DNA of 63,951 nt, the filler included, from an uncultured bacterium (lineage in GTDB: Bacteria > DAOPZR01): NCBI GenBank assembly GCA_964637655.1. It is 4 parts of 4 records of this genome, joined end to end, with 100 filler letters (N's around TTAATTAATTAA, not from the genome) between each part and the next. Parts side by side here need not be neighbours in the genome. Positions count along the whole stretch, not along the records: positions 17,915 to 35,324 come from CAZWUZ010000039.1; 3 more parts are not named here. One strand, written 5' to 3'. The position numbers were made by a program, and so were the translations under genes. This document shows positions 17,915-38,116 of the stretch, piece after piece. Position 1 is the stretch's first letter. Every line of letters begins with the position of its first letter. The notes below the pieces were generated by a model, which was not told the DNA's origin, made no database searches, and worked only from the letters and a program-made list of their open reading frames with translations.

Positions 17915-18636
17915 CCGACGGTACGTACGTCAATTTCCTCGCGCCCACCCTGCGCCTCGCCGGCCCCGACGGCGCGCAGGCGGCCGCGCCGCTGGTGCAG
18001 ACCGGGACGGGACGCTACGAGGGCGAGACCGCGCTCCCCGCGCGCGGCAGTTATCTGGTCAGTGTCAGCGAGGCGTCGAACGGCAGTGAGCGCCTGCTGC
18101 TGCGCACCGGGCTGGGCTATACCTGCGCGCCGGAGTACCGCACTGATGCCGCCGCCAGCATTATCCCGCGCCTGCGCCGCATGACCGGGGCGGCCGAGGT
18201 CAGCGACCTGTCAGGCAGTTTCCGCCCGCGGCAGCAGCCCGTCTATGCCAATCTCGATCTGTGGAAGCCGCTGCTGCTCCTCGCCTGCGTGGTGTTCCTG
18301 TTCGATATCGCCGTACGCCGCGTCGATTTCCGCCTCGCCGAGATCGTCACCGCTTTCCGTCAGTGGCGGGCCGGGCGGCAGGCGGCGGAAAGCGGGGCGG
18401 ATCTCGCCCGCGTGCAGCGCCTGCATGAGCGCGTGCGGCAGGCACCGCACCGGCAGGCAGCGCCCGTCACGGTGCCGGTCATGCCGCCGCGTCCCGGGAG
18501 CATCGGGCGTGCTGACAGCGCCCCGTCAGTAAGTCCCGCGCCGCCGACAGCGAGAGCGCCGGAACCGGTGTCCCACACCGCGCGACTGCTCGAAGCGCGA
18601 AAAAAAGCACGCGAACGCTTCGAACGCCCGCAATAG
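17915..18636 (+). CDS. C-terminal part of a membrane-anchored protein (tail resembles VWA-domain membrane proteins), 5' truncated
   Basis: Open from the gap; QTGTGRYEG...PEY...LWKPLLLLACVVFLFDIAVRR. Confidence 0.55.
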
Positions 18637-18643
18637 CGAACAA

Positions 18644-19951: not shown

Positions 19952-20159
19952 AAGACACCCGTATCTTCGTACCCGGAATGCGCCGCCTCAGGCGTTACGC
20001 GATGAGTACCGATGCCTGCGGGGGTGTCACGGAATGGACGCGCGCTACCGTATGCAACAGGAAAAGGCGTGTACTGACGTTGCCTCACTGGCTGCAGTAT
20101 AGCATAATCGGCGCGTAGACGATAGGCGCCGGACGTTCACCGTCCCCCGGCTGCGTCGT

Positions 20160-20750
20160 TCAGCGGAAAGCCGCAGCCACTGCCGCACAGGTGCGGAGCG
20201 CCTGTTCCAGTCGCGCGGCATCGCGCAGCACCCGTACCTGGCTGAAGAGCACGCTGCCGCCGGTGATATGCACCGGCACTGGCGCTGCCAGCAGCGCTGC
20301 CCGCGCCGCCGCCGGCACGACGCTGTTCAGGTCGGCTTCCGGCGGCGCCAGAACCTCGTAGCGAGCGTCAAACGCCGCATCGCCCGTGGAGCGTGCCGGC
20401 CACTGCCGTGTGCCGCCGTACGTCTGTGCCCGGGCAAGCACCTGTGCCGCGCCTTCCCGCGGCAGTTTCGCCCGCACCCGCGTATAGCCGCGTGAACGCG
20501 AGCGCCCCGGCGCAGTGATTCCCGCCTGCATGGTAAAAACGTCAGCGTGCACCTCGCTGCCGTCGAGCCGTCCCTGCAGTTCGGGAAAGGTCTTCTGCGT
20601 GAACTGCAGTCCTGTCCGCTCCCCGACAGTCCGCCAGGCGGCAGTGTTGCGTTTGCTCCAGTGCAGCGCTACGACAATAAGCACCGCAAAGACCACCAGC
20701 GCCCCGAGCGCGCAGGCGCCCCCGATGATCACCCCGAGCGGCAGATCCAT
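20160..20750 (-). CDS. Hypothetical single-pass membrane protein
   Basis: N-terminal TM helix then W...A.R.GL; starts 3 bp after the upstream stop. Confidence 0.65.
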   Translation of the reverse strand: MDLPLGVIIGGACALGALVVFAVLIVVALHWSKRNTAAWRTVGERTGLQFTQKTFPELQGRLDGSEVHADVFTMQAGITAPGRSRSRGYTRVRAKLPREGAAQVLARAQTYGGTRQWPARSTGDAAFDARYEVLAPPEADLNSVVPAAARAALLAAPVPVHITGGSVLFSQVRVLRDAARLEQALRTCAAVAAAFR

Positions 20751-20753
20751 GCC

Positions 20754-22346: not shown

Positions 22347-22379
22347 GGTCAGTCCTCCTCTTTCCTGTCGTGCTGCCGT

Positions 22380-24470
22380 TCACTCGCCATCGTTGCCGCC
22401 GCCACTGTCACCGCCGCCCGGATCTTCCTGCGGGTCGTTCCCCGGGTCTTCCGTCGGCCCGGTCGGCGCCCCGGGGTCTTCTGTCGGCTGCGCGGTATCA
22501 CCACTACTGTTATCGCTGACGATGTGGGCGGCTTCGTGCCCGATGAGGCTCATTTCCTCCGGCGTGCCCCGGTTGAGCGCGACATTCCCCCCCGAGGTAT
22601 AGGCCTCGGCTCCCAAACTGGCCGACACCCGCGCGCCGGTACTGGTAACAATGCTGACGCCGGACAGGTTGGCGCCAAACTGCTGCTGCAGCGCGCCCCG
22701 CCAGTTTCGCCCGCCAAAGGTCGGTTCCGGTGCAGTACAGCGCACCATAGCTACAGTATGTGTCTCGAGGCTAACCTCGCAGAGTATCCATTTGTCACCC
22801 GGTTCAGCCCGCACCGTCACGTCCGCATCGAGCAGCGTGCCGTCGGCGCGGAACGCTTCGCAGGCAAGTCCCTCCGCGCGCGCCGCCATGCCGAGAAATG
22901 CCGCCGTGCCATCAGGCAGGTTGAAGGTGGTCAGCACCACGCCCCGTCCGGGTTCACCGGTCAGCAGCCGTTCAATGGTTTCCGCCTGCACCGGGCTCCC
23001 CGTCAGCACCAGCGGCAGCGACGAAGCGGGGTAGCGTGCGGTAAAGAGCAGCGGGCGTGTACCCGCTGCAAGCTGCCAGTCGCCGAAGTGCGGCGTTGCC
23101 CCGCTGAAGAATCCCGTAACATACCGCGTGCCGTCATCTCCCACGGCAAGGTCATCGCCGCGGTCGTTGCCGTCACCACCCCCCTGCGTCACGGACAGCA
23201 GCGTGCCGTCGGGTGCATACGCGGCAAGAAACATGTCCGCCTTACCGCCCGACACGCTCAGCGTCGTGGTCCCGAAGCGGGCTGTGCCGTACACCATGCC
23301 GGTAAGCGCTATGGTTCCGAACCGGTCGACCGCCACGGCCAGCCCCCGGTCGTCACCGGTGCCGCCGGCGCTCCGCACCCACTGCAGCCGGCAGTCCCGG
23401 TCATATTTCGCGAGGTAGACGTCGGCGTTATCGGTGCGGTCGCCGTCGTTGCGGGTCACCGCGAGTTCCCGGCTGCCGAACCGCGCCAGCCCCTGCCGCG
23501 CGCCCGACGCTTCCCCCTTGAATTCCCCGGCGATGATGATGTTCCCCTCGCCGTCCACCGCAATGTCCTCGACATCAGCAAAGGCGGCAACACGCTGCAC
23601 CGAGAGCACATCGCCGGCCGCGCTGTAGCGCGCGACAAATACCTCCTGGTCGGGCAGGGACTGCGAACCGAAATGCGTGGCCGTGGTGGTCAGCGTCTGC
23701 GTGCCGAAACGGTTGTTCCCGCGGGTATACCCCGTGACCAGGATGGTGCCGTCTGGTGACATCGCGATGCCGCGCGCCCATGGCCCCGTGGTGAAACTGC
23801 TGCCGCCGGTAATCTGCCGTACCCAGTCGAGTTCACCAGCCGCGGTGTAGCGGGCGAGAAACAGGTTTTTCGCCATCTGCTTATCGAGTCGTACCGGCCC
23901 GAAATCGGCATACTCCCGGAAATAGCCGAGAACATAGACGTTGTCATCTGCATCGACCGCCAGCCCCTCCGGGCCCATGGTCCCGCCATCACCCGCAGTG
24001 CGTACCCATTGCAGCATGCCGTCGCTGTCATACTTCGCGATGAACAGCGAGCGTCCCGGTGCCGCCGGCAGGTGCGTCTCCCCCAGCTGCATGCTCCCCT
24101 GATAGTACCCGGCGACATAGACACCGCTGCGCCCGGCAGCGATATGCAGCCCGGCATCACTGCCGCTCCCGCCCGCCTGCCGCACCCAGCGCAGGATGCC
24201 GTCAGGGGTATAGGAAACAACAATGATGTCGGAACGGGTATTGCCGCGTGCCGGCGCATCCGGTGCGACCGGCGTGAAACTGAGCTCGCCGGTGGACATG
24301 CCGGTGACATAGACCGTGCCCTGATGGTCAGTGGTAATACCGAACCCGTTGGCGCTGTAGCCCTGCACCTGCCGTACCCAGACCGGAGAAGTGGCTGCCG
24401 GCGCACTAACTGGAATGAGCACGAGCAGGAACACTATCGCAAACATCATGCTCAGCCCGTAGCGCATCAT
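22380..24470 (-). CDS. Secreted SBBP-like beta-propeller protein with a C-terminal DUF4157-like domain
   Basis: About 7 repeats of D.F.AKY..DG...WVR..GG...D....VAVD; then FGANLSGV.I...LGAEAYTSG.NV...LIGHEAAHIV. Confidence 0.75.
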   Translation of the reverse strand: MMRYGLSMMFAIVFLLVLIPVSAPAATSPVWVRQVQGYSANGFGITTDHQGTVYVTGMSTGELSFTPVAPDAPARGNTRSDIIVVSYTPDGILRWVRQAGGSGSDAGLHIAAGRSGVYVAGYYQGSMQLGETHLPAAPGRSLFIAKYDSDGMLQWVRTAGDGGTMGPEGLAVDADDNVYVLGYFREYADFGPVRLDKQMAKNLFLARYTAAGELDWVRQITGGSSFTTGPWARGIAMSPDGTILVTGYTRGNNRFGTQTLTTTATHFGSQSLPDQEVFVARYSAAGDVLSVQRVAAFADVEDIAVDGEGNIIIAGEFKGEASGARQGLARFGSRELAVTRNDGDRTDNADVYLAKYDRDCRLQWVRSAGGTGDDRGLAVAVDRFGTIALTGMVYGTARFGTTTLSVSGGKADMFLAAYAPDGTLLSVTQGGGDGNDRGDDLAVGDDGTRYVTGFFSGATPHFGDWQLAAGTRPLLFTARYPASSLPLVLTGSPVQAETIERLLTGEPGRGVVLTTFNLPDGTAAFLGMAARAEGLACEAFRADGTLLDADVTVRAEPGDKWILCEVSLETHTVAMVRCTAPEPTFGGRNWRGALQQQFGANLSGVSIVTSTGARVSASLGAEAYTSGGNVALNRGTPEEMSLIGHEAAHIVSDNSSGDTAQPTEDPGAPTGPTEDPGNDPQEDPGGGDSGGGNDGE

Positions 24471-24532
24471 TACCCCCGAACGGATCCGATTTCGCTGTGC
24501 AGCGACGGCACTGGCAGGCAGCCGTCACTATC

Positions 24533-24561
24533 ATCGTAGCAGCGAACATACGCGCCGTCAA
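24533..24561 (-). promoter_or_regulatory. Sigma70-like promoter for the beta-propeller operon
   Basis: TTGACG-17 bp-TACGAT on the minus strand. Confidence 0.45.
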
Positions 24562-24586
24562 TGCCTATTCGCGTACTGTAACAAAA

Positions 24587-24615
24587 TTGACAAACACGGC
24601 TGACGGCGCTATGCT
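24587..24615 (+). promoter_or_regulatory. Sigma70-like promoter
   Basis: TTGACA-17 bp-TATGCT upstream of AAGGAG and ATG 24638. Confidence 0.55.
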
Positions 24616-24637
24616 TGCCGCCGGTAAGGAGCGTGCC

Positions 24638-25330
24638 ATGTTTGGTCCGGCATTCCGCAGCGAGGCAGTCGCCCCGCTCGCCTGCATCAGCGAGGGCTGG
24701 GCTATCATCCGCGAGCAGTACTGGCTCTTCGTGCTGATCACGGGTCTCGCCATCCTCATCGGCGGGGCCGTTCCCATCGTCCTCACGGGTCCCACCTACT
24801 GCGGCATCTTCCTCTGCTGCTTCGCACGGCAGCGCGGTGAGCGCGTATCACTCGAACTCTTCTTCCGCGGCTTCGATTACTTTGTCGAGTCGCTCATCGC
24901 CTCGCTCTGCATTATGGCCATCGCCATGGTCATCATGCTCCCCTTCTTCCTGCTGCTCTTTGCGGGAATGTTCGGGGCACAGTTCGCCGCCGCGCAGGCA
25001 GAGCAACCGGAAATCATGCTCTACGTGATGGCCGGAGTCCTGCTGCTCATGGTGCCGATGATGATTCTGGCTACGCTGACCTGGGTGCTGCTGCTGCTTG
25101 CCTACCCGCTCATCGTCGAGCACCGGCTCAAGGCGCTCGACGCGCTGCGGCTGGCGCTGGACGGCGCACTCGCCAATCTCGGGGGGCTCATTGTGCTCGA
25201 CCTGCTGCTGACCGCGCTGATGCTTGTTGCCGCCCTCTGCTGCTACCTGCCGATCTTCCTCGTCATGCCGCTCTATTTCGCCGCGCTCGCCGCCGCCTAC
25301 CGCCGCATCTTTCCCGCCCCCGCCGCCTGA
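24638..25330 (+). CDS. Integral membrane protein (DUF975-like)
   Basis: ISEGW...GP...G...LFFRGFDYF; about 5 TM segments. Confidence 0.7.
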   Translation: MFGPAFRSEAVAPLACISEGWAIIREQYWLFVLITGLAILIGGAVPIVLTGPTYCGIFLCCFARQRGERVSLELFFRGFDYFVESLIASLCIMAIAMVIMLPFFLLLFAGMFGAQFAAAQAEQPEIMLYVMAGVLLLMVPMMILATLTWVLLLLAYPLIVEHRLKALDALRLALDGALANLGGLIVLDLLLTALMLVAALCCYLPIFLVMPLYFAALAAAYRRIFPAPAA

Positions 25331-25346
25331 CCGGCCCGACTGGCGG

Positions 25347-27026
25347 TCAGTTCACGCAGGTGACTTCACCGTCGGGAACCTCGATAGTGAAATCCACGCC
25401 GAAGCCGCCACCACGGTTGTTGACCCGCAGCAGCAGTTCATTGTCGCCCGCCCGCAGTTCCAGTTCCTGCCGGCGGTTCGGGGCCGGCAGCCACTGCGTG
25501 GCGTTGTCCAGCCGCACCCGCTCGCTGTTGAGCAGCACAATGCATCCGTCATCGCTGGCGTAGCGTAGGATGGCCGTGCCGGATGCCGCTGCCCGCAGGC
25601 GCACCCGCACGTAGCACACACTGTTGGCCGGGTTGCCCAGCAGGCGGGCCAGATCGAACCGGCCGGTCCCCGCCACACGACGCCAGGTCACGTCCCCCTG
25701 CTCCGGCGGATAGGCGGCGGAAAAATCACCTGTTGCCGGGTAGACGGGCGACAGTTCCACCGCGGCAAGCGGCACGATGTGCGCCGGGCGCAGCGTGCAG
25801 GGATAGGTTTCCGGCTGCGCCTGCCGCCGCACCTCGGCAAACAGCGCGCTGTTGTATTCCTCCTGCGCCTCGCGCAGACGCTGGAATGCCGGCATGGCCT
25901 CCTGCCACGCTTCCGCTTCATTGCCGAATTTCCGCCAGGCCAGCTTCTGCATGGCAAAGATATGGCTGATGACCTGCTGCAGCGCTTTGGCCTGCACGCA
26001 CCAGGGTGCTTCATCGAGCAGCGCCAGGTCAGCCCCGTCAGCAAGCCGCGCGGCGGTGAATGCCGCCAGTTCACGCCCCGCCACGCTCAGCACCGCGCCG
26101 TGCGGAAAGGCAGCGGTATCGGCCTGCAGGCGGAAGCGGTTGCACTCCTCCTGCAAGGGCACGAGGTCGAGCAACTGCCGCGCTTCCGGCGGAACGTAAA
26201 AGGGGATCCCGGCCGGCAGCAGGGTGAACCGCACCGTGCCGTCATCCTGCGCTGACACCTCTGTCAGTCGCCCGGTTGCCGCGGTCGCTGTACGCGCCCC
26301 GACCGTTATGTCAGCCACTGCCGGCGGCACGGCCAGGCGCCGCATGATGGTATAGGCCAGCAGCAGGTGGCCGGGGACATCAGGATGCGTCCCGTCACTG
26401 ATCAGCGTGGCGCCCGGATAGGTTTCCTTGTACTGGCGCTGCCAGGCCCGCAGCGGGGTGAACACGTCGATCGCCGTCAGGCCGTCCTGCCCGGCAAACA
26501 CGGTCAGTTCCGCCGACAACCCTGCCAGTGTCTCGTTGTACACGTCCCCCTGCGGATGGATCGCGTAATCCACCGGCGAGGGCGTCAGCAGCACGGGCGT
26601 GGCCCCGTTGGCAATCACGCGACGCGTCAGCCGGCTGGCATGGCGCAGGTAGGCGTGGCGGCGGCGCGCGTCAGGCGGTTCGTAGCCGCCGTCATTCATG
26701 CCGAACGCGATAAAGACCAGGTCGGGGTCAAGCGGTTCGACATCGGCCGCGTAACGCCGGTCGCCGTCGCGGGCGGTGTCGCTGGTCAGCCCCCGGTTGT
26801 AGAAGCGGAATTCCCGGTCGGGAAAACGGCCCGCGATATAACTGGAAACCAGCAGCGGCCAGACATCGGCCTCGGTGATGCTGTCCCCGAAAAAGACGAT
26901 GGTCGGACAGCCGCTGGCCGGCACACGTTCGAAATCCAGCAGCCGCGCCCGCCCGTCATTGCGCACCAGCAGCAGGGTAAGCAGCAGCATGCCGCCCAGC
27001 GCATATCTGCCGTATCGTCGCCTCAT
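25347..27026 (-). CDS. SGNH/GDSL hydrolase with a C-terminal PA14-like beta domain
   Basis: FFGDSIT, NRG, FGMND and DGTHP blocks; C-terminal SDDG...LN. Confidence 0.88.
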   Translation of the reverse strand: MRRRYGRYALGGMLLLTLLLVRNDGRARLLDFERVPASGCPTIVFFGDSITEADVWPLLVSSYIAGRFPDREFRFYNRGLTSDTARDGDRRYAADVEPLDPDLVFIAFGMNDGGYEPPDARRRHAYLRHASRLTRRVIANGATPVLLTPSPVDYAIHPQGDVYNETLAGLSAELTVFAGQDGLTAIDVFTPLRAWQRQYKETYPGATLISDGTHPDVPGHLLLAYTIMRRLAVPPAVADITVGARTATAATGRLTEVSAQDDGTVRFTLLPAGIPFYVPPEARQLLDLVPLQEECNRFRLQADTAAFPHGAVLSVAGRELAAFTAARLADGADLALLDEAPWCVQAKALQQVISHIFAMQKLAWRKFGNEAEAWQEAMPAFQRLREAQEEYNSALFAEVRRQAQPETYPCTLRPAHIVPLAAVELSPVYPATGDFSAAYPPEQGDVTWRRVAGTGRFDLARLLGNPANSVCYVRVRLRAAASGTAILRYASDDGCIVLLNSERVRLDNATQWLPAPNRRQELELRAGDNELLLRVNNRGGGFGVDFTIEVPDGEVTCVN

Positions 27027-27119
27027 CGTTCTGACTCTTCCCGGAATGAACCGCCCTGCTGTACCATGTTCACCGCCACCTACCCGTTCGCCGCATCGTA
27101 GCACCCTGACCGATAGCGG

Positions 27120-27365
27120 TCAACGTGCCTTGCCCCTTACCCGCTTCTTCCTCCCCTGCCCCGTGCACGGCACAGCCAGCGTGGTGCAGGGCGAGTCCCT
27201 GACCAGCGTCGGCAGGATTTTTGACAGGACCCAGCCGTTCGTACGCAGGTAGCATTTGCCGTTCACTTCCATCCGCCATGGCCGGACCGGGTCGGCGCTC
27301 GGCACGAAGACCCTCACCATTTTTCCGCCGCGATATTGTTCGATGATGCATTCGCAGTTTTTCAT
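27120..27365 (-). CDS. Small basic hypothetical protein (81 aa)
   Basis: ATG 14 bp after the upstream stop; MKNCECIIEQYRGGKMVRVFVP...RTNGWVLSKILPTL. Confidence 0.5.
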   Translation of the reverse strand: MKNCECIIEQYRGGKMVRVFVPSADPVRPWRMEVNGKCYLRTNGWVLSKILPTLVRDSPCTTLAVPCTGQGRKKRVRGKAR

Positions 27366-27379
27366 TTTCTGATGACCTT

Positions 27380-28903
27380 TCACTTGCCAGGCCGCAGGCG
27401 CATGGAACGTGCCGGTGGCAGATGGCGGGTGCGCATTTCTGCCAGTGTGCCGTCCGTCTCCATCGTCGCCATGGCAGCCCGCCAGCGTTTCACGATAGCC
27501 GGTGGCGTGGCGTGCGAAAATGCCACGTCGACTGAAAACTCCTCCGGGTACGCGATAATTCCAGACCGTGAACGATACCCTGAGCTGGAAAGAGCGGCAT
27601 CGACCGTCATCTCGTCCAGCAGGTACAGGTCCGCTCCGGCGTACTTGAACAACTGGATGGCGCTCACCGCGCTGGTGCACGAGATCAGATTGACAAAGCC
27701 CTGCGACCGCAGCGCGTCAGCTGCATCGGAATGTGCCACCACGGCGATGCGCGGCTTCACTTTCAGGTCGTCGAGCGAATTGAAGCGCAGGCAGGATATT
27801 CGCGGCAGGCCCGGGTTGCGGTTCCAGCGGGGTGAATTGAGCGCCATGCCGTTATGGTACATCATATAGTCCCCGTACAACGCGTCGCGACTGCGTGCCA
27901 CGGTTCCCGCCCACTGATACTGCGTGTCACGCGCCGCCGTATGACGCAACCCCGCCAGCGCAACATACGGGTGGTGTTCTGCCAGTTCGCGCGCGTCCGC
28001 CCGCTCCAGCAGGGTAATGCTCGCTGCCATGCCCGTACGCCGCATCACCTCGCGCGCCGCTTCAGGATACAATCCATCGATGCCGTGTTCTGTCGCGTAT
28101 GCCAGCGGCGGGTCATGTTCGACGAGCAGCAGCACTTCGCCCGGTACCGGCTGCCCGGGATGATACGGTTCATACAGGGCGGCAAATGATCCCTCGCGCT
28201 GCAGCGCGACCAGTTCCGCCTGCCAGGCCGCCACTTCTGCATCAGGCGTTTCGCGCGGAAAGGCCAGGTAGCGCGGTTCCGTGACGATTGTGCCGGAAAC
28301 AACCACCTCGCCCCGCCCGAAACCGGCCTGCCGCAACTGTTCTGTCGCCGTCACCGCGTCAATGAGCAGCAGATCGATTTCTCCCGCTTGCAGTGCCTCC
28401 AGCGCCACGCGTTCACCGGCATAGTATCTGCCCGCACAATAGCCGCGTGCTGTCAGTAACTCACTGCCGCGCTCCCCGGCATACGCAATAAGATGCTTCT
28501 CCTTTTCGTACGGCAGCGCCGTGAGTGCAGGTGTCGAATCGGTACGCGCGGTCAGCAGATACGAGGTCAGGGCCACGGGACCGACCCAGCGGAACTGTGT
28601 CTCGTTCTCCGCTGTACGCACCATGGAGAGCATCACCGTCCGGGACTCCTCACCGGGGCCGGGTGCTGTTGCGCCGACCGAAACGTCGGCTATCCCCCCG
28701 CGGCGCCGGCAAAGTGTGCGCACCATATCGACGGTGCTTCCCTGCAATTGCGTGCCCGTCCGGTACTGCAGCGGATACTCCTCCGTTCCGGCAAACGTCA
28801 GAGCGGGCGCAGCGGGCACCGCCGCCGCCGTCAGTGCGCACCCGGCCAGCTGGATACCCAGCACACCTGCTGCCAGCAGGCGGCACAGGCATGTGCCGGT
28901 CAT
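27380..28903 (-). CDS. Tandem SBP_bac_3 (polar amino acid-type) substrate-binding protein
   Basis: Two repeats: TEEYPL/EHDPPL, RT..E..F.WVGP, DG..A.... Confidence 0.8.
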   Translation of the reverse strand: MTGTCLCRLLAAGVLGIQLAGCALTAAAVPAAPALTFAGTEEYPLQYRTGTQLQGSTVDMVRTLCRRRGGIADVSVGATAPGPGEESRTVMLSMVRTAENETQFRWVGPVALTSYLLTARTDSTPALTALPYEKEKHLIAYAGERGSELLTARGYCAGRYYAGERVALEALQAGEIDLLLIDAVTATEQLRQAGFGRGEVVVSGTIVTEPRYLAFPRETPDAEVAAWQAELVALQREGSFAALYEPYHPGQPVPGEVLLLVEHDPPLAYATEHGIDGLYPEAAREVMRRTGMAASITLLERADARELAEHHPYVALAGLRHTAARDTQYQWAGTVARSRDALYGDYMMYHNGMALNSPRWNRNPGLPRISCLRFNSLDDLKVKPRIAVVAHSDAADALRSQGFVNLISCTSAVSAIQLFKYAGADLYLLDEMTVDAALSSSGYRSRSGIIAYPEEFSVDVAFSHATPPAIVKRWRAAMATMETDGTLAEMRTRHLPPARSMRLRPGK

Positions 28904-30108
28904 GCGCTGCGTACCTGGCGCTGCCAGTCGGCCATGCGGCGCGCGAGGATGCGCTGTTTCTCCCAGTCACCCTGCACATTGCCGCCCTTGGCTAGGCGGC
29001 GCAGCTCATCGAGGAACGGCAGTTCCGGCTCCACCGGATACTCCCCCATCCACGGGGTGCCCGGCAGCGGCAGGAAATAGTGCCCCTGCACGCGCATCTT
29101 CGTCTTCGGCTGCAGGCGGTGAATCTGTTCGAGCATCGCCTGCCGGTCCTCCGGGGTCTCCCCCGGCATGCCGAACACATAGTCGACGATGGGAATGAAG
29201 CCTGCCTCGGCGAGACGGCAGGCGGCCTCCTCGACCGCCGCCGCGGTATGCCCACGGTTGGCGCGCTGCAGCAACCCGTCAGTCGCCGCCTGCGCCCCGA
29301 TGGAGACCGTATTGTTCGAACACTCTTCGCGCATCAGTGCCACCGCCTCCGCCGTCACGTACTCGGGGCGCAGTTCGCCCGGGTAGGCACCGAAGATGAT
29401 GTCCTTGATATTCGCCCCTCGGCAGACGGCAAAGAGTTCGCGGATGGCGTCGAGGTTCGGCTGCGTGCCCTTCGCATGGAAGCCGAGCGCGTTGGGGCTC
29501 AGCGCGGTAAAACGCCGGCGCCCGAGATCGACCTGCTCCGCCAGCCATGGGGCAAGCGCGGCCGGGGTGCGGTGACGCGGCGGATGCGCAAAGAGGTGCG
29601 GCGTCTGGCAGTAGTTGCACTGGTAGGCGCAGCCGCGGGTGATTTCTGTCGGGGCGAACCACTCCCCCGTACGCGCCAGCGGCGGCACCTCGTCGAGCAC
29701 CACTGGATGGTCCGGCACAACAATGCGCGGCCAGTCGCGCTTCCCGCCGAGGACATATTCCTCCCAGAATGCGGGAAAGGTCAGTTCGCACTCACCGACG
29801 AAGACGGTGTCGGCGCCCGCGGCGAGCACCGTTTCCGGCAGCGCGCTCGGGTGCGGACCACCGGCGATGATGCGCGCGTCAGGCCGCGTCTTCCGCAACG
29901 CGGCAATTTCGTCACGCGTCTCCTCCCACATCGTGCTCATGAACGAATACATGACGAGCGGCTGTTCGGACATGCCGACCGCAACAATGAGTTGCTTGTA
30001 GGAGCGCGCGATATGCCACGGGTGCGGCTCGGGGAGATGCTCGAGCACGGCCATCAGGCGGTGCAGGGTGAAGCGGTTGAACTCGTTGCAACGCATAATG
30101 ACGTCCAT
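28900..30108 (-). CDS. B12-binding radical SAM protein (TIGR04013-like)
   Basis: YSFMS, AGGPHPS, EITRGCAYQCNYCQTP...RHR, ELRPE. Confidence 0.85.
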   Translation of the reverse strand: MDVIMRCNEFNRFTLHRLMAVLEHLPEPHPWHIARSYKQLIVAVGMSEQPLVMYSFMSTMWEETRDEIAALRKTRPDARIIAGGPHPSALPETVLAAGADTVFVGECELTFPAFWEEYVLGGKRDWPRIVVPDHPVVLDEVPPLARTGEWFAPTEITRGCAYQCNYCQTPHLFAHPPRHRTPAALAPWLAEQVDLGRRRFTALSPNALGFHAKGTQPNLDAIRELFAVCRGANIKDIIFGAYPGELRPEYVTAEAVALMREECSNNTVSIGAQAATDGLLQRANRGHTAAAVEEAACRLAEAGFIPIVDYVFGMPGETPEDRQAMLEQIHRLQPKTKMRVQGHYFLPLPGTPWMGEYPVEPELPFLDELRRLAKGGNVQGDWEKQRILARRMADWQRQVRSA

Positions 30109-30110
30109 CG

Positions 30111-31532
30111 TCAGTACCCCATCCGGCGCAATTCCTCGCGGTTGCGGCGCGCCACCTCGCACTGCGGATCGAGCGCCAGCGCCTTCTCCCAGAGGAGCGC
30201 AGCGCTTTCGTATTCCCCGAGCTGGAACGCGGCGGCGCCCAGGTTGACCATCGCCTCGACCGAATTCGGGTTGAGCACCAGCGCGCACATAAAGGCGGTA
30301 TCGGCGGCATCGTACTGCGCGACCTGGTACGCGGCATGCCCCAGCTGGTAGTAAGCGAGATAGTTGTGCGGGTCGAGCGCGAGCACCGCGCGGCAGCGTT
30401 CCGCCGCGTGCCAGAACTGTCCGGCGCGCGTGAACGCTTCACCCTCGCGCAGCAGACGGTCGATTTCGGGCGGCGGGGATTCGGCAGCAGGCGCCGCCGG
30501 TGCGGGAGCGACAACCGGTGCGGCTGGCTGTCGCGCCGGAACCGGTACCGGTGCAGGTGCCGGCACTTCTTCTGCCGCAGCGCCACCCCAGGCAACGGTG
30601 AGCGAGACCGCATGACGGTCATCGGCATGCGCCCGGCAGGTGGCGGCATAGTCAACCGCCAGGTACGGAAAGGCAAAACCAATACCGCCGGTAAGCGCGC
30701 GGCCTTCACTCTCCCCGATACGCCAGCCGCCGCGCAACGCCAGCCACGGCAGCGGCAGCACTTCGATTCCCATGCGAAAGCCGGTCTCTTCATGACGCGG
30801 CTTGACCGCTTCGACGTTCAGGCGCAGGCGGTCAGGCCACACAAACAGCGAGGTGCCGACCGCAACTTCCGTCGGCAGTTCAACCGTCCCGGTGTCATGT
30901 TTCAGTTGCGGCCCAGCCTGCCTCACGGCGAAACCCGCGTACCAGTCGCGGCCGGCATCGACCAGCATGAGCAGGCCGGCATCGCCGCTCCAGCCGTCCT
31001 GTCGTGTCCCGTCAGTGGTCAGGCGCAGGTAGCGCCCGGTCAGCCCGCAGGCGAAACGCTCCGTCAGCGGCAGTGCGCCCGTCAGCGCCACCTGTTGCGT
31101 GCGCACGTCATGCAGGGCATTGCCTGACGGGTCGGCCGGCGTGCGCTGCCGCACGGCGTCCGCTTCGTCCTGCCCGGCGAGCAGCGCCAGGCGCAGGCGC
31201 CCGGCATACCACAACGCACCCGCAGTTCCCTGCCGGCCGTCGTCATCATACACATACCCGACGGTGCCCTCATGCTGCACCGCCGCGGCGATGGCGGCAG
31301 GATTGGCGGCGGCAAAATCCAGGCCGCCGCTGCGCGCCACACCCGCCCCTCCCTGCCCGGCAACTGCCGGCGACGCATCACTGCACACGCCGGCACACAC
31401 CGGCGTCGTTCCCGCTCCGCGCGCAGCGAACGGTACCATAGCCAGTACCAGTCCCCACCACGCGAACATGAACAATGTGCCGCGCCGGCCGCGGCACGAA
31501 GCCGCGGCCGGCCACACCGGACGTTCCGGCAT
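30111..31532 (-). CDS. PorV/PorQ-like beta-barrel protein with C-terminal TPR repeats
   Basis: NPAAIA, D.G, LALRGG, VDYA...H.VSL barrel pattern; Pro/Ala linker; TPR helices. Confidence 0.65.
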   Translation of the reverse strand: MPERPVWPAAASCRGRRGTLFMFAWWGLVLAMVPFAARGAGTTPVCAGVCSDASPAVAGQGGAGVARSGGLDFAAANPAAIAAAVQHEGTVGYVYDDDGRQGTAGALWYAGRLRLALLAGQDEADAVRQRTPADPSGNALHDVRTQQVALTGALPLTERFACGLTGRYLRLTTDGTRQDGWSGDAGLLMLVDAGRDWYAGFAVRQAGPQLKHDTGTVELPTEVAVGTSLFVWPDRLRLNVEAVKPRHEETGFRMGIEVLPLPWLALRGGWRIGESEGRALTGGIGFAFPYLAVDYAATCRAHADDRHAVSLTVAWGGAAAEEVPAPAPVPVPARQPAAPVVAPAPAAPAAESPPPEIDRLLREGEAFTRAGQFWHAAERCRAVLALDPHNYLAYYQLGHAAYQVAQYDAADTAFMCALVLNPNSVEAMVNLGAAAFQLGEYESAALLWEKALALDPQCEVARRNREELRRMGY

Positions 31533-31558
31533 GCAATTGTGCGGAAAGTGTGATCAGT

Positions 31559-31711
31559 TCAGAGTTTGGCGCCGATTTTGAACATCTTGGTGCCGCACTT
31601 GGGGCACTTGCCCTGAACGGCCGGCTTGCCGTTCTTCATGGTGACCTGCTGCGGTTCCTGCATCTCGGCTTTCGCCTTGCACTTCATGCAATACCCTTCA
31701 ACCTGTGCCAT
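31559..31711 (-). CDS. DUF5679-like zinc-ribbon protein (50 aa, below the ORF track cutoff)
   Basis: MAQVEGYCMKCKAKAEMQEPQQVTMKNGKPAVQGKCPKCGTKMFKIGAKL; RBS GGAGG; own promoter TTGACG-17-CATGAT at 31757-31785. Confidence 0.85.
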   Translation of the reverse strand: MAQVEGYCMKCKAKAEMQEPQQVTMKNGKPAVQGKCPKCGTKMFKIGAKL

Positions 31712-31781
31712 AGTTCCCCTCCCAGAGAAAGTGTCTGCGCTTTCGGCAGCACCGGCATCATGCCATTATTCGCCCGCCACG

Positions 31782-33479
31782 TCAACTTTCAGCGATGGCC
31801 ACGCGGTTCTTCCCCTCCCGCTTGGCGCGGTAGAGGCCACGGTCGGCAAAGGCAAAGAGCGCGTCACCATCACTGCCGTCGCGAGGCTTGCAGGCCACGC
31901 CGCCGCTGACGGTCACCGACAGTTCCTGCGTACCGCTCATCACTCGGTTTGCGGCGATGGCCGCTCCGACCCGCTGCGCCACCGTCAGCGCCTCGTCCGG
32001 CGGCGTATGCGGCATGATAACGGCAAATTCCTCACCGCCGTAGCGGCAGACAATGTCCGTGCCGCGCACCGCCCCCTGCGCCGCGCGCGCGGTGGCCTGC
32101 AGCACGAGGTCGCCGACGAGATGCCCGTACGTGTCGTTGAACTTCTTGAAATTGTCGATATCAAACACCATCAGCCCGCACGGCTCATCGCCGGCCAGCG
32201 TCTCCGCCCAGGCATTGTCGAAATACGCGCGATTGAAGGCGCCGGTAAGGCGGTCGCAGATGGCATTGCGGTAGATGACCGCATTTTCCAGCGCCAGCGC
32301 CACCTGCAGCGCCAGCGCATTGAGGAAATTCAGGTCGTTCTGCGTGAATGGGCGGTCAGCCGGCCGCGCGACATACAGGAAGCCGCGACACCGGCGGCGC
32401 GTGCGCAGCGGCAGGAAGACCTCATTGGCCCGGCCGTCGGCCTCACCCGGCGCGCGGTTATGCCGCACGGCCTCCTCGCGCGCGAGACATTCACCCACCT
32501 CGCTGCGCCCGTAAAATGCCGCCGCATCAGCAGCCGGCGCACCCGTCAGGCGCCCCTCCTGCACCGTCTGCTTGTCGTCGCTGCACCAGACCACCGCCGC
32601 ATCGTCGCTCCCCGCCAGTTCACCCAGCACCTGCAGCCCGCGTTCGAGCACGAGGTCGGGACGCAGGTCGCTCTGCGCAAGATCGTTTCCGGCGGTGAGC
32701 AGCAGGTAGAGGCGGCGGTTGGCGGCATCGAGCCGTGCCGCCTCGTTCGGCGTCGTTTCCCCCGAGGCGGGGCAGAGCACCGCGTAGGGACAGGCGGTGC
32801 AGAACGGCCCGGGCCGGGGCGCATAGTCGCGGTCGGTGATAATGGTATCGATGAGCGCCCCGATATCCGCCGCCGCCGCATCGAGCTGCGCCGGGGTGCG
32901 AGTGGAGACCACGTCCCGCCCGAGCGCGAGATAGTGCAGCGCGAGCGTGGCGCACGGCTGCCCGTAGAGGGCGCGGAACGCCAGCGCGTAGACCGTGAGC
33001 TGCAGGTCGTCGGATGCCTCGCGCTCGTCGAGCGCATGTTTTCCCGTTTTGTAGTCGATCAGGTGGTACGAACCGTCGGCATGGCGGTCGACGCGGTCGA
33101 AGAACCCGGTCAGTTCATGTTCCCCGAGCGGCACCGTGAAGCGGTGTTCGAGCAGCAGCGGCACCGCCGTCATGTCATGGCGGTAGAAGTAGCGGTCGAG
33201 CATGTCGAGCGCTCGCAGCCCGTAGCGGCGCTCTTCCTCGAGGTCGCGATACCCCTCGCGCCGCCAGTGCGCGCGCAGCAGCTGATGCAGCTGCGCCGGC
33301 GTACGCTGCGCCGGGGCCGGGTCGCGGAAAAAGGCGCAGAGCGCGTCGTGCACGCTCTCCCCGAGGCAGGTCTCGGGAGTGCGCACGGCGAATTCACCCT
33401 TGAGGCGGTCGACATACTGGTAGCGGTAGCGGCGCGGACAGTCCCGGTAGCAGCGCAGGCGGGTGGCGCTGGCCCGCAT
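31782..33479 (-). CDS. PD-(D/E)xK (RecB/AddB/Cas4-like) Fe-S nuclease-GAF-GGDEF diguanylate cyclase fusion
   Basis: DCPRRY, GFFDRVD, LIDYKTG, QLTVY, CTACPYAVLC; GAF (LYV..P..RPFTQND); DRLTG..NR, DIDNFK.FND.YGH, RGTD-IVCRY-GGEEF. Confidence 0.9.
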   Translation of the reverse strand: MRASATRLRCYRDCPRRYRYQYVDRLKGEFAVRTPETCLGESVHDALCAFFRDPAPAQRTPAQLHQLLRAHWRREGYRDLEEERRYGLRALDMLDRYFYRHDMTAVPLLLEHRFTVPLGEHELTGFFDRVDRHADGSYHLIDYKTGKHALDEREASDDLQLTVYALAFRALYGQPCATLALHYLALGRDVVSTRTPAQLDAAAADIGALIDTIITDRDYAPRPGPFCTACPYAVLCPASGETTPNEAARLDAANRRLYLLLTAGNDLAQSDLRPDLVLERGLQVLGELAGSDDAAVVWCSDDKQTVQEGRLTGAPAADAAAFYGRSEVGECLAREEAVRHNRAPGEADGRANEVFLPLRTRRRCRGFLYVARPADRPFTQNDLNFLNALALQVALALENAVIYRNAICDRLTGAFNRAYFDNAWAETLAGDEPCGLMVFDIDNFKKFNDTYGHLVGDLVLQATARAAQGAVRGTDIVCRYGGEEFAVIMPHTPPDEALTVAQRVGAAIAANRVMSGTQELSVTVSGGVACKPRDGSDGDALFAFADRGLYRAKREGKNRVAIAES

Positions 33480-34753
33480 CAGAAGGGGAGCGGCGCCGCC
33501 GCCGGGGCGGCAACAGCCGCGGCCTGCCCGTCGATACGGTGGGCAAGATACCCGTAGCGTCCGTCGCCGTCATCGCGCACGAGGAGCAGCACCGGGGTGC
33601 CCGCGGCCACCGCGGCCAGCGCCTCGTGCTGCGTGCGCCAGGTTTCCCCGTCCACCAGCACTTCCCGGTCACAGCCGCCGGCAATGAGCCGGCCGTGATC
33701 GTCGTGGCCGGTATACTGCTGCCAGACAGCCGTGAGCAGGCGCAGCGGCGCCAGGCCGCCGGCGCGGCGTACGGTCATCTCCTGCAGCCGCGCCTCGAGA
33801 TCGGCCACCTGCCGGTCATGCGTCACCTGCGCCGCCCAGTCCGTCCAGCGCTCGGGCGACCCGTCGAGCAGGTCGCAGGCGGCGAGCAGCGCCTCGGGCG
33901 TATCGCTGACGCAGCCGCGCGGCACCGGGTGCAGGTAGCCGTACACCTGCACCTGCGTACCGCGACGATGCCACCAGTCGAGCAGGGCGGCAACGTCCGT
34001 ACGGGACCACGCTTCGCCCGTCACGGCCAGCCAGAGGTTCAGCACGCCGCCGCGGGCGAAGAACTCGTGCAGGCCGCGGTCGAACGTGGCGAGGGCGCGT
34101 CCATCCACCATGCCGGACACAAGCAGCAGGCGCTGCTGCGCCCCGGCGCAGAGGGCAACAACTGCGGCCGGCAGTTCGTCCGGTGGCAGGAAACGGGTGG
34201 AGGCGTCAGTGGTCAGGCGTGACTGCAGCGCGCGCAACTGACCGTGCAGGAGTTGCAATTCACGCAGCAGCGGCACATTCTCGCGCAGGTCGAGCAGGCG
34301 CTGTTCGCGCAGGTCGAGCAGGCGGCTGCGCGCCACCTGCTGCTGCTGTTCCGTCTGCTGGGCGAGCAGCAGCCGGCGCTGCACCTGGCGGTCGATATCG
34401 GCGTAGAGCTGCGCCACCTTGTCGCGGTAGGCCTGCTCGCGCAGTTCGAGATGGCGTGCGGCGTCATCACACTCTTTGGCCAGGCGCTGCTGCTCCTGCT
34501 GCAGCCCCGCGAGCCGCTCATCACGTTCAGCGATGGCGCGGTGGATACGCTCATTTTTCCACATGAACACGAGGAGCGCGAGAAAGACCAGCGCCCACCC
34601 CGTCACCAGCGGGGTGGTCCCCGCCTCGAGCATGGCGACGGTGATGACCCCCTGGTCCCAGAGGAGTTTGAGGATACCGACCGGCAGGGCGGCAATGACC
34701 GCCCAGGCTACGAAACTGAAACACCGGTCCCACAGCGTCGGCCGCTGTGCCAT
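33479..34753 (-). CDS. Membrane protein: 2 TM, coiled coil, degenerate PLD-like domain, possible C-terminal OB fold
   Basis: RBS GGAGG and ATG 34753; AQQRLLLVSG...ARGGVLNLW (PLD-like fold, no HKD); TGATG-coupled to the nuclease-GGDEF gene. Confidence 0.6.
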   Translation of the reverse strand: MAQRPTLWDRCFSFVAWAVIAALPVGILKLLWDQGVITVAMLEAGTTPLVTGWALVFLALLVFMWKNERIHRAIAERDERLAGLQQEQQRLAKECDDAARHLELREQAYRDKVAQLYADIDRQVQRRLLLAQQTEQQQQVARSRLLDLREQRLLDLRENVPLLRELQLLHGQLRALQSRLTTDASTRFLPPDELPAAVVALCAGAQQRLLLVSGMVDGRALATFDRGLHEFFARGGVLNLWLAVTGEAWSRTDVAALLDWWHRRGTQVQVYGYLHPVPRGCVSDTPEALLAACDLLDGSPERWTDWAAQVTHDRQVADLEARLQEMTVRRAGGLAPLRLLTAVWQQYTGHDDHGRLIAGGCDREVLVDGETWRTQHEALAAVAAGTPVLLLVRDDGDGRYGYLAHRIDGQAAAVAAPAAAPLPF

Positions 34754-34778
34754 CAGGTTCCCTCCGTCAGCGTTCAGG

Positions 34779-35273
34779 TCAGGCGGCGTCACGCTCCGCC
34801 GCCGGCAGCCGGTCGGGCGCGCGCGGCGCCCGTCCGTCCGTGCGCTCCGTACGCCCCCCCTCGCGCACGGTGACCGTGCGCTGCTGCTTCGCCCACTGCC
34901 ACTGCGTCTTCCCCTGCTCGAACGCGTTGCTGATCCCCCTGTAGAAGACGAGGTGGCCGTAGTTGGAGTTGATCGTCCCGTCGGGGTTCTTCAGCTTCAG
35001 CCAGAACTTCGACGCCTCGCCGAACTCGTCGCCGGACAGCGTGCCGCTGAAGTAGAGCCTAAGCTCATTGTTCAGGTACTTGACTGGGTACGGTCGGGAC
35101 GGGGTGGACAGCACGTCGCCGGGGGCGTTGACGCGGAACAGCGCGTCCTGGATGTACCTGACCTTCTCCCCGCGCGGCGACTTCTCCTTGCCGCGCTGCA
35201 TGATCCCCCTCAGGAGGGACAGATAGGATTCGCTGAAGGAATCGCCTTCAAACAGATTGCCGGTTAAGCCCAT
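34779..35273 (-). pseudogene. N-terminal fragment of a thymidylate synthase/pyrimidine hydroxymethylase-family protein joined to an unrelated tail
   Basis: SPRG.KV, KYLNNEL.LYFSG, DGTINSNYG, QWQWA; the catalytic half is absent. Confidence 0.65.
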
Positions 35274-35324
35274 TGCGGTCTCCTTTCCTTTTTTTTTGTT
35301 TCCTTTTTACATGGAAATTAAACC

Positions 35325-35424
35325 NNNNNNNNNNNNNNNNNNNNNNNNNNNNNNNNNNNNNNNNNNNNTTAATTAATTAANNNNNNNNNNNNNNNNNNNN
35401 NNNNNNNNNNNNNNNNNNNNNNNN
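35325..35424. other. Artificial contig linker
   Basis: N-TTAATTAATTAA-N. Confidence 0.97.
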
Positions 35425-36244: not shown

Positions 36245-37333
36245 ATGATGGACGAAGCGCGCATTATTGCGAAACTTATCGACGACGGGCACCTTGCGCC
36301 GAAGCAGGTCGAGCGGGCGCGCGAGAAGGCGGGGAACGGGTCGCTGCGTGATACGCTCATCGCCGCGGACCTGATCACCGCTGCCGACTGGGACGCCGCG
36401 GCGGCGGCGGCGGCCCCGGCGCAGAACGTCGAGGAACTGCTTGCTGCCGTGCCGAGTTTCGACGACCTGCTCAGCGATCTGACCATGGTCGACATCAAGG
36501 CCTTCTCGACCATTCTCGGCAGCGAAACCTACACTACGGGCAAGGCGCTTTTCCGCGAGGGGGACGAGGGGAGCAAGCTCTACGTCCTCAAGAGCGGCAG
36601 CGTACACATCTACAAGGGCGGGACGGACATCGCCACGCTGCGCACGGGTGACGTGCTCGGCGAAATGTCGTTCATCCTCGGCTGGCAGCGCACGGGGCGC
36701 GCGGTGGCCGACGGCGAGACCGAACTGCTGGTTATCGACCGCAAGGAGTTTCTCAAGTTCTGCGGGCGCGCCCCGGTAACCGGGCTGAAGATCGTGCTCG
36801 GGCTGATCAAGGTCATCTGCTACCGCCTGCAGGCGTATGAACTGGCGCTGGCGCATGCCGCGGGGCGCACACCGCCGCTGCTCCGCTACGATCCCGACCA
36901 GGGGCTCACCTTCAACGAGGTCTATGACCTGCTCGACGCCGACCAGGCGGCCGACCTGCGCACCATCTCACGCGAGCAGACCGTGCCCGCCGGGGAGCCG
37001 GTCTTCGCGCAGGGCGATGGTGGCGACGACCTCTATGCCGTCACGCGCGGCACCGTCGACATCGTCTACACCGCACCGGGCGGGGCGCGCCAGACCGTCG
37101 CGCGTCTCGGCGAGGGCTATGTGTTCGGCGAAGTGGCGTTCGTGCTCGGCTGGCCGCGCACGGCGGCCGCGGTCGCCAGCGAAACGGCGACCCTCACCGT
37201 CATCGACAAGGCGGGCTTCGGCCGCTTCATGGCGGCGCATCCGGGGGCGGCGCTGCGCATCATCATCACGCTGGCGCGCCTCATCAGTTTCCGTCTGGAA
37301 ACCTACACTTCAGCGACACGGGAGAAAGTCTGA
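36245..37333 (+). CDS. Tandem cyclic-nucleotide-binding domain protein with an N-terminal T2SSE_N/MshEN-like segment
   Basis: LFREGD...LGEMSF...RTG and VFAQGD...FGEVAF...RTA; no HTH output domain. Confidence 0.85.
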   Translation: MMDEARIIAKLIDDGHLAPKQVERAREKAGNGSLRDTLIAADLITAADWDAAAAAAAPAQNVEELLAAVPSFDDLLSDLTMVDIKAFSTILGSETYTTGKALFREGDEGSKLYVLKSGSVHIYKGGTDIATLRTGDVLGEMSFILGWQRTGRAVADGETELLVIDRKEFLKFCGRAPVTGLKIVLGLIKVICYRLQAYELALAHAAGRTPPLLRYDPDQGLTFNEVYDLLDADQAADLRTISREQTVPAGEPVFAQGDGGDDLYAVTRGTVDIVYTAPGGARQTVARLGEGYVFGEVAFVLGWPRTAAAVASETATLTVIDKAGFGRFMAAHPGAALRIIITLARLISFRLETYTSATREKV

Positions 37334-37706: not shown

Positions 37707-38116
37707 TTCCGGTGCCAGGCACTCAACTAATGGAATTACGGGAGTATATTGGGTAATTTCCCTGCAGGATACTCCCCTTGTAGAATAGTTTCTTGCGTAC
37801 TACACCTCTGACGCGTATCAGACGTGCGCACAGCACTGCAGCACTTTGGCCGACAGAGGAAAATATTCACCCAAAGTTCCCTCGTTATTCCATTAGTTGA
37901 GTGCCNNNNNNNNNNNNNNNNNNNNNNNNNNNNNNNNNNNNNNNNNNNNNNNNNNNNNNNNNNNNNNNNNNNNNNNNNNNNNNNNNNNNNNNNNNNNNNN
38001 NNNNNTGGCACCGCAGTATCGTGCCTGGCACCGCAGTATCGTGCCTGGCACCGCAGTATCGTGCCTGGCACCGCAGTATCAGTGCCTGGCACCGTAGTAT
38101 CGTGCCTGGCACCGGA
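37707..38116. repeat. GTGCCTGGCACC REP-like element: inverted repeats plus a 20-bp tandem array
   Basis: 37718-37736 is the perfect inverse of 37887-37905. After the gap, tandem gtgcctggcaccgcagtatc units run 38006-38116. Confidence 0.8.

Follow-up and report, generated by a model that had tools for sequence, protein, structure and literature searches.

A RecB-like nuclease domain fused to a GAF-GGDEF diguanylate cyclase in an uncultured bacterium: a candidate sensor of DNA ends or of Fe-S cluster state

Why would a protein that looks equipped to process DNA ends also carry the machinery for making a second messenger? Diguanylate cyclases are known to take their cues from light, oxygen and small molecules as well as from phosphorylation, and the gene analyzed here would set a nuclease in the place of such a receiver. 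This gene, P0001, lies on the minus strand of a 63,951-nucleotide stretch of DNA (hereafter, the window) from an uncultured bacterium (DAOPZR01; assembly GCA_964637655.1), and its product joins a PD-(D/E)XK nuclease domain to a GAF domain and a GGDEF domain. Our analysis leaves very little doubt that P0001 is a real, conserved nuclease-GAF-GGDEF fusion. Judged by its sequence, the best reading of the protein is a sensor diguanylate cyclase with either DNA ends or the state of an iron-sulfur (Fe-S) cluster as its input, and the new element would be the use of an undescribed, catalytic-looking nuclease in the putative role of input domain. We assign a probability of roughly 0.45 to the DNA-sensing mechanism, in which occupancy of the nuclease by DNA ends or single-stranded DNA would alter the synthesis of cyclic diguanylate (c-di-GMP).

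If such a coupling is real, it would open a direct route from DNA ends (arising from damage, replication collapse or incoming linear DNA) to biofilm and motility decisions or, alternatively, a route to the same decisions from Fe-S cluster integrity, in both cases through a compact protein with two predicted activities on one polypeptide. The carriers of the fusion belong to poorly known, mostly uncultured anaerobic lineages. A literature search (GGDEF with PDDEXK or Cas4-like; diguanylate cyclase with nuclease and Fe-S) found no description of the fusion. One paper in the relevant field contains both GGDEF and PDDEXK and, in the excerpt available, treats them separately. The Cas4-family survey PMC5704561 has no occurrence of "GGDEF" or "diguanylate" in its main text, and the main text of the ACE1 paper (PMC12094033) has no mention of GGDEF.

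The fusion gene, its support and its recurrence

The features of P0001 and of its upstream partner gene, P0002, are listed below with their window coordinates (aa, amino acids).

31782..33479, minus strand: whole gene P0001, 565 aa, ATG start, stop included (open reading frame list and translation)
32769..33476, minus strand: PD-(D/E)XK nuclease domain of the AddB/AdnA/Cas4 type, residues 2-237 (PF12705)
33438..33440, minus strand: Cys14, first predicted Fe-S ligand, within C-P-x-x-Y
33087..33107, minus strand: nuclease motif II, G125-F-F-D128-R129-V-D131
33042..33056, minus strand: nuclease motif III, D142-Y-K144-T-G
32988..33002, minus strand: Q160-L-T-V-Y164 (QxxxY) motif
32772..32801, minus strand: C227-x2-C230-x5-C236, three further predicted Fe-S ligands
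32673..32750, minus strand: long helix between the nuclease and GAF domains, residues 244-269 (model secondary structure)
32283..32660, minus strand: GAF domain, residues 274-399 (GAF_3)
31803..32264, minus strand: GGDEF diguanylate cyclase domain, residues 406-559 (PF00990)
32055..32066, minus strand: RxxD inhibitory site, R472-G-T-D475
32025..32039, minus strand: active-site GGEEF, G481-F485
33479..34792, minus strand: upstream partner gene P0002, 437 aa, with a likely true start at M14 (34753)

Each of the three domains was recognized well above its profile cut-off. The nuclease domain matched Pfam PDDEXK_1 (PF12705) over the complete profile (all of positions 1-247; E 7e-37, 128.1 bits with the cut-off at 22), the central domain matched GAF_3 (E 3e-12, 47.3 bits against 27), and the cyclase domain matched both Pfam GGDEF (PF00990; E 4e-40, 137.6 bits against 23.8; profile positions 1-161 of 161) and NCBIfam TIGR00254 (154.9 bits against 37.4). 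Translation and these two databases bear out the original prediction of one continuous open reading frame (ORF) with intact nuclease, GAF, GGEEF and inhibitory-site motifs. Nucleases of this kind are recognized by the D of motif II, the (D/E)xK of motif III and QxxxY. The last of these had been described earlier as a Q..Y motif; it is present, with a spacing of three residues and not two. The four cysteines proposed to hold the cluster were found as C14, C227, C230 and C236, and C10 is an extra cysteine that is not conserved among relatives.

In the cyclase domain, R472-G-T-D475 is followed by five residues (IVCRY) and then by GGEEF, and D440/D442, N448 and D457 are present. The last two residues occupy what we take to be the positions that contact guanine in PleD, and their presence makes c-di-GMP, rather than a mixed dinucleotide, the expected product. 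The domain shows a canonical GTP-type active site together with a product-inhibition site, and on these motifs c-di-GMP synthesis is predicted. An AlphaFold2 model of P0001 was built from 25 sequences, with a mean predicted local distance difference test score (pLDDT) of 87.4 and a predicted template modelling score (pTM) of 0.50.

Could the fusion be an artefact, be it of chimeric assembly, of pseudogene fusion or of an ORF that arose by chance in GC-rich DNA? The window is indeed stitched from contigs joined by N...TTAATTAATTAA...N spacers (17815-17914, 35325-35424 and 52246-52345), and a 643-aa ORF that runs antisense to the entire nuclease-cyclase gene (31626-33557, plus strand) shows how easily long chance ORFs arise here. 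The gene of interest, however, lies wholly inside a single 17,410-base contig (window 17915-35324), contigs from two studies bridge its junctions, and at least 17 protein clusters, described below, share its architecture with the motifs intact, so that an artefact is close to inconceivable. For the junctions, we compared positions 31700-34800 with assembled contigs of public runs (contigs, not raw reads). Run X1 contains a 554-base identical contig that crosses the GAF/GGDEF junction (32098-32651). From a different study, run X7 contains an 861-base contig, ~91% identical, that crosses both domain junctions (31996-32856), and a 1070-base contig that crosses the boundary with P0002 (32872-33937). 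Independent assemblies agree on the fusion, read-level depth being something that contigs do not give, and the misassembly that the original prediction had named as a risk at the domain junction is not seen.

Within the N-runs, TTAATTAATTAA is a six-frame stop linker, and N-runs without the linker also occur at 37906-38005 and 47940-47949. The 643-aa antisense ORF has no family support and is a typical shadow ORF, the usual by-product of GC-rich DNA (G+C is ~67-68% here). Profile matches and conserved relatives all fall in the minus strand frame, and none is antisense.

The architecture recurs well beyond this genome. In a word-indexed search, 7 of the 121 matches listed carry both PF12705 and PF00990 (query included), with 27-50% identity over 93-99% of the query, and an eighth row is a partial, nuclease-only fragment. 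A profile built from eight full-length members (alignment A3) was compared with 1.84 billion cluster representatives, which gave 150 listed rows. The Pfam scan covered the 25 rows in which the best-matching stretch starts within the nuclease; for P0003, one of the other 125 rows, which match best in the GAF/GGDEF part, precomputed Pfam domains were used. The 25 scanned rows comprised 16 proteins with PDDEXK_1 and GGDEF, 8 with tandem PDDEXK_1 and 1 lone nuclease. At 50% identity, the proteins with the fusion architecture thus make up at least 17 clusters (the 16 scanned and P0003), and the concern raised with the original prediction, that the fusion might exist in no other genome, falls away. 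One member, P0279 (564 aa, from the cluster of P0004), is 56% identical to P0001 end to end. The source labels of the fusions are Elusimicrobiota, Endomicrobiia, Bacillota and unclassified "bacterium", all metagenome-assembled, and their public annotation is just "diguanylate cyclase". Putative tandem proteins were also observed (P0133, P0141, P0143, P0159, P0162, P0170, P0176 and P0242; 554-1297 aa), with two to five PDDEXK_1 domains only.

A search for related loci, which used the nuclease part as query, returned 177 loci, mostly with stand-alone or helicase-fused nucleases. Among them the fusion is present in L106, L109 and L113 only (L113 is cut), and contig ends truncate L104 and L112. 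The readable relative loci have a G+C of 24% to 41%, against 67% here. Variants of the architecture also occur: in P0148 (435 aa) the GAF domain is missing and the nuclease is joined to GGDEF, and P0122 (L098:1212-3395) carries the nuclease, a GAF domain and a second GAF-like stretch with no GGDEF match, a layout shared by P0123 (L104:1859-2965, cut). In both P0122 and P0123, a C-terminal part of ~140 aa stands in place of a recognisable GGDEF domain. By eye, the C-terminus of P0122 was considered as a degenerate GGDEF domain; with no Pfam hit and 16% identity, this assignment was rejected.

Conservation was counted in 24 fused proteins, with C14 scored in the 22 that have the N-terminus. The CxxCx5C cysteines are present in all 24 (and also in P0122), and C14 in 22/22. 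The nuclease motifs are kept nearly throughout, namely D128 in 23, D142 in 21, Y143 in 24, K144 in 23, Q160 in 21 and Y164 in 22 of the 24 proteins. On the cyclase side, GGEEF, N448 and D457 are found in every protein and RxxD in 22/24. Median identity to P0001 is 31% for the nuclease, 17.5% for the linker and GAF domain and 38% for GGDEF, from which we conclude that the nuclease is nearly as constrained as the cyclase and the GAF domain much less. L257 and L260 of the linking helix are invariant in alignments A1 and A3. As read from these alignments, architecture and motifs are conserved across distant lineages.

Kinship of the nuclease domain

Structural comparison placed the nuclease domain closest to enzymes that process DNA ends. 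The best match of the model was the nuclease domain of AdnA in a structure with blunt-end DNA (9np6_A; Z 21.8, root-mean-square deviation [rmsd] 2.6, 227 residues aligned), and further matches were 6ppu_A (Z 20.9), ACE1 (9iab_B; Z 18.5) and AddB (3u44_B; Z 15.2). A phmmer search of P0001 against the PDB returned GGDEF chains only and no nuclease match. A profile of the nuclease domain, searched against the same database, matched AdnA/AdnB (E 1.5e-5 to 9e-5), Cas4 SSO0001 (4ic1; E 9e-4) and AddB (E 0.085). With mycobacterial AdnA/AdnB (AdnAB) and with AddB (AddAB), P0001 shares the RecB-like fold, motif II, (D/E)xK, QxxxY and the pattern of a four-cysteine cluster that spans the domain, at an identity of 15-23%; in contrast to these systems, its nuclease domain has no attached or adjacent helicase and forms the N-terminal module of a signalling enzyme.

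The closest sequence relatives of the domain are stand-alone PF12705 proteins of the "RecB family exonuclease" kind (~250-420 aa), which, unlike P0001, end after the cysteine motif. Length-matched relatives comprise "RecB family exonucleases" (a JGI name) and UvrD-helicase fusions, the latter being dominant, and phage exonucleases also match the domain (phrog_69, E 4e-24). The UvrD-Cas4-like fusions and phage Cas4-like nucleases belong to the same pfam12705 family as P0001. In the main text of Hudaiberdiev et al. (2017; PMC5704561), the links listed for pfam12705 are phage, UvrD and COG1205.

The original prediction had called the domain Cas4-like. This description holds for the fold, and the cysteine pattern of CRISPR Cas4 (SSO0001, 4ic1) is likewise shared. 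It does not extend to an identity as CRISPR Cas4, since the score against TIGR00372 (36.6 bits) is below the curated cut-off of 65 and the contig has neither cas genes nor a repeat array. At E up to 0.01, the Pfam scan of P0001 did not report PF01930, and a tandem repeat search of 17915-35324 for a CRISPR array gave one 35-base row only.

To place the fusions among their relatives, a quick IQ-TREE phylogeny (LG+G4) was computed from 140 nuclease-domain rows. The tree excludes 58 loci in which the match covers query residues 10-225 incompletely, L098, L104 and L106 were represented by the proteins P0122, P0123 and P0007, and L109, L112 and L113 were not in the tree. The fusions and 19 short stand-alone proteins form one clade of 46 rows (SH-like approximate likelihood ratio test [SH-aLRT] support 87), apart from the viral group, the ~380-aa group and the ~1000-aa helicase-fused group. 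Because the backbone supports are 84-87, a single origin of the fusion is not settled by this tree.

The closest stand-alone relatives (L099-L103 and L105) are 245-257 aa long and 37-39% identical. In all six loci the nuclease gene is preceded by a ~920-aa gene and a 552-aa gene. In the one locus scanned (L099:3838-10077), the order is polA, argS, the nuclease gene and a tRNA m1A methyltransferase gene (GCD14/TrmI). This polA-argS setting is a housekeeping one, and it hints at a housekeeping repair role for the stand-alone clade.

A nuclease as the proposed input of a cyclase, and other readings

We read the nuclease as the input because P0001 follows the layout of sensor cyclases, in which an N-terminal module is followed by a long helix, the GAF domain, another long helix and GGDEF, and because its model from residue 251 onwards superposes on GAF- and phytochrome-linked sensor cyclases (5llw_B and 4zmu_A, Z 25-26). 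The GAF part of the model matches GAF structures at Z 15-17, and PleD (1w25) was matched by both phmmer against the PDB (E 1.7e-30) and the model (Z 25.2, rmsd 1.4). P0001 shares GGEEF, RxxD and a helical link between sensor and cyclase with PleD, Dcsbis (4zmu) and the phytochrome-linked 5llw. It differs from these sensor cyclases in its extra N-terminal module, which is a catalytic-looking nuclease and not a receiver domain for small molecules, light or phosphoryl groups.

Under the DNA-sensing mechanism, P0001 would act as a soluble diguanylate cyclase of the sensor kind, with a nuclease of the DNA-end-processing type, carrying a predicted four-cysteine Fe-S cluster, as its input. The nuclease domain would bind, and probably trim, free DNA ends or single-stranded DNA, and its occupancy would shift the packing of the long helices that link nuclease, GAF and GGDEF in a dimer. 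This shift would in turn raise or lower c-di-GMP synthesis, with the RxxD site providing what is probably ordinary feedback inhibition, and breaks or linear DNA in the cytoplasm could thereby feed into c-di-GMP-controlled behaviour. In the subclade of the window, the coiled-coil protein P0002, predicted to be translationally coupled and membrane-anchored, would probably work with the cyclase, perhaps by tethering it to the membrane or by supplying it with nucleic acid. A coupling of DNA state to cyclic-dinucleotide synthesis is, in our view, the most economical way to account for the protein.

A comparable logic is found in Cas10 from type III CRISPR systems, a protein that signals on meeting nucleic acid and combines an HD nuclease with a divergent GGDD palm, cyclic oligoadenylates and an RNA-guided complex. 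Like P0001, Cas10 holds a nuclease domain and a GGDEF-like cyclase in one polypeptide (PMC10910872). However, the HD nuclease, the GGDD palm, the cyclic oligoadenylates and the RNA-guided complex were not seen for P0001, and the likeness is one of analogy, not kinship.

Several observations weigh against DNA sensing. Three of the 24 fused proteins lack D142, and P0258 has lost nearly all nuclease catalytic residues and has kept the cysteines and GGEEF; catalysis is therefore not needed for the function of the fusion in every lineage. The catalytic residues could also be kept for a nuclease job unlinked to control of the cyclase, the GAF domain may carry the real signal, and how the domains of the model are oriented to one another is uncertain (pTM 0.50). 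The neighbours of the fusion also differ in each readable locus and so do not point to DNA repair. In L106 (3387-4895, 7160-8002), the low-GC fusion gene begins 3 bases downstream of a gene for a 5'-nucleotidase/metallophosphoesterase and is followed by a small ORF and then by an AP_endonuc_2 gene (xylose isomerase-like/endonuclease IV-type TIM barrel), and in L109 the neighbours are a response regulator, PanD and an ABC ATPase. A gene for FapA (flagellar assembly protein A) adjoins P0122 in L098 and P0123 in L104. In addition, the 177 loci contain no relative of P0002, including the five with fusion relatives, which makes the partner specific to the subclade of the window and places it outside the core mechanism.

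The cluster itself could be what is sensed. The nuclease fold would then serve as a cluster holder, and loss or oxidation of the cluster, in response to redox state, oxygen, nitric oxide or iron, would switch the cyclase. Such a role would fit the finding that, across 25 aligned proteins, the invariants of the nuclease domain are solely Y143 and three cysteines, as well as the retention of four cysteines and GGEEF in P0258, which has lost nearly all catalytic residues, and the oxygen-poor source labels of the fusions (wastewater, bioreactor, groundwater and digester; Endomicrobiia, Elusimicrobiota). The four cysteines are, however, equally fixed in relatives that are not sensors, so that their invariance is not special, and the acidic and lysine catalytic residues and QxxxY, which are kept in 21 to 23 of 24 proteins, would be superfluous in a pure redox sensor. 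We therefore consider Fe-S sensing unlikely, while granting it an appreciable chance. The flow of information could also run in the opposite direction, with the nuclease as an output that is locked or freed by c-di-GMP at the RxxD site or by the dimer state of the cyclase. RxxD is present in 22/24 proteins, and a precedent exists in Escherichia coli, where c-di-GMP is described as an antitoxin to the deoxyribonuclease HipH (PMC11452175). Yet RxxD is common in ordinary cyclases and is explained by feedback inhibition, the intact GGEEF in 24/24 argues that synthesis, and not binding alone, is under selection, and an N-terminal position is typical of inputs, all of which makes a regulated nuclease output improbable.

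The original prediction had also put forward an anti-phage system, and an alarm for foreign DNA would indeed give the membrane partner a place, with injected linear DNA leading to a cyclic-dinucleotide signal and then to a protective response. Free DNA ends mark invading DNA, Cas4-family nucleases such as ACE1 are described as acting in defence (PMC12094033), and Cas10 provides an analogy (PMC10910872). P0002 is also weakly like the phospholipase D (PLD) nuclease domains of the defence proteins MkoB (E 4e-5) and SauUSI (Z 9.3), and a truncated phage-type thymidylate synthase gene adjoins the P0002-P0001 pair at the contig end. Against this, a search with PADLOC-DB 2.0 found no system; it gave P0001 weak single-domain matches (Cas4, E 1e-9; DruK, E 8e-7), and a third gene tested beside P0001 and P0002 was without a match. 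No known effector gene was found, no known defence or DNA-repair genes are present among the proteins of contig 17915-35324, the fusion was found in 0/80 viral loci, and the nearest stand-alone relatives sit in a housekeeping context. Moreover, N448 and D457 are residues of enzymes that make c-di-GMP, which is a general messenger, and P0002 has no histidine where the HxK of PLD proteins would align. The anti-phage proposal is thus not supported, and we give it only a slim chance.

The partner gene P0002 and the surrounding contig

The TGA of P0002 shares one base with the ATG of P0001 (TGATG at 33477-33481), an overlap that suggests coupled translation of the two genes. P0002 has no Pfam, NCBIfam or PHROG match, and a search of 5.8 billion clusters returned five relatives only. 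The protein has hydrophobic segments at ~25-45 and ~59-78 and a coiled coil from ~60 to 194, and in its model (pLDDT 64.5, from 6 sequences) the C-terminus consists of an alpha/beta part followed by a beta barrel. Weak leads for these two C-terminal parts were the PADLOC match to MkoB mentioned above, PLDc_2 clusters of the ESM Atlas (score 0.83) and, for SauUSI, the PLD-type nuclease region of chain 7clg_B. The region ~346-426 of this low-confidence model resembles the oligonucleotide/oligosaccharide-binding (OB) folds of SSB, RPA and PriB (Z 7-8.4, 70-80 residues aligned). A Foldseek search of the model returned no match at E up to 1e-3; OB folds were listed at a probability of ~1 but with E above that value. 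PLD-family proteins carry the motif HxK(x)4D, and the stretch of P0002 aligned to it, P-x-P-R-x4-D, lacks a histidine at the position two residues ahead of the R. PLD-like and OB-fold domains are therefore weakly predicted in P0002, as leads and not as assignments.

The P0002-P0001 pair recurs in a ~91% identical relative and on a 4532-base contig, where the two proteins have the consecutive accessions HNW93018.1 and HNW93019.1. Judged by equal size and source, it is probably also present on a 22,756-base contig (P0279 and P0128) and a 4203-base contig (P0003 and P0126). A predicted complex of P0001 residues 1-265 with P0002 residues 200-437 scored 0.27, against a mark of 0.32. In its boldest form, the DNA-sensing mechanism would make the pair a membrane-stationed surveillance device for entering or breaking DNA, in which an OB/PLD-like head of P0002 would catch single-stranded or broken DNA at the inner membrane, hand the ends to the nuclease and so fire a c-di-GMP alarm. 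Such a device, with a housekeeping messenger as its signal, would be like Cas10 and cGAS in logic and unrelated to them, and the wider family, in which the partner is absent, would then for the first time bring direct sensing of DNA ends into c-di-GMP signalling; we regard this extension as a long shot.

Since the window consists of separate contigs joined by spacers, the true neighbours of the pair are limited to the genes in 17915-35324. Downstream on this contig lie genes for a TPR/PorV-like protein, a B12-binding radical SAM enzyme, a double solute-binding protein, a GDSL lipase, a beta-propeller protein with an eCIS core and a second radical SAM enzyme. The two B12-binding radical SAM genes are at 18644-19924 and 28900-30288 (both on the minus strand), and one of them overlaps the stop of the TPR/PorV-like gene. 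The beta-propeller protein (22380-24470, minus strand) has 696 aa, with propeller repeats and a C-terminal eCIS core (PF13699, E 2e-10). An Rfam search of the window gave 0 matches, and hence no c-di-GMP riboswitch is in view. Nothing usable came out of a scan of 31300-35324 for promoters and terminators.

A 164-aa ORF at the contig end (34779-35273, minus strand) has the look of a remnant left by truncation of a gene. It resembles only the N-terminal third of a thymidylate synthase of the phage type (positions 27-147 of the 335 in the phrog_160 profile, E 3e-7), and its last ~40 residues are of low complexity and show no such relation. Beyond this ORF follow 51 bases with a G+C of 33%.

The other contigs of the window carry a few genes that touch on similar functions. 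A double cyclic nucleotide monophosphate (cNMP)-binding protein (36245-37333) is encoded on one of them and is thus not a neighbour of the nuclease-cyclase gene. An ORF related to IS200-like Y1 transposases is found at 44707-45705 (plus strand), and a RecD2-type helicase of 826 aa is encoded at 57489-59969 (minus strand).

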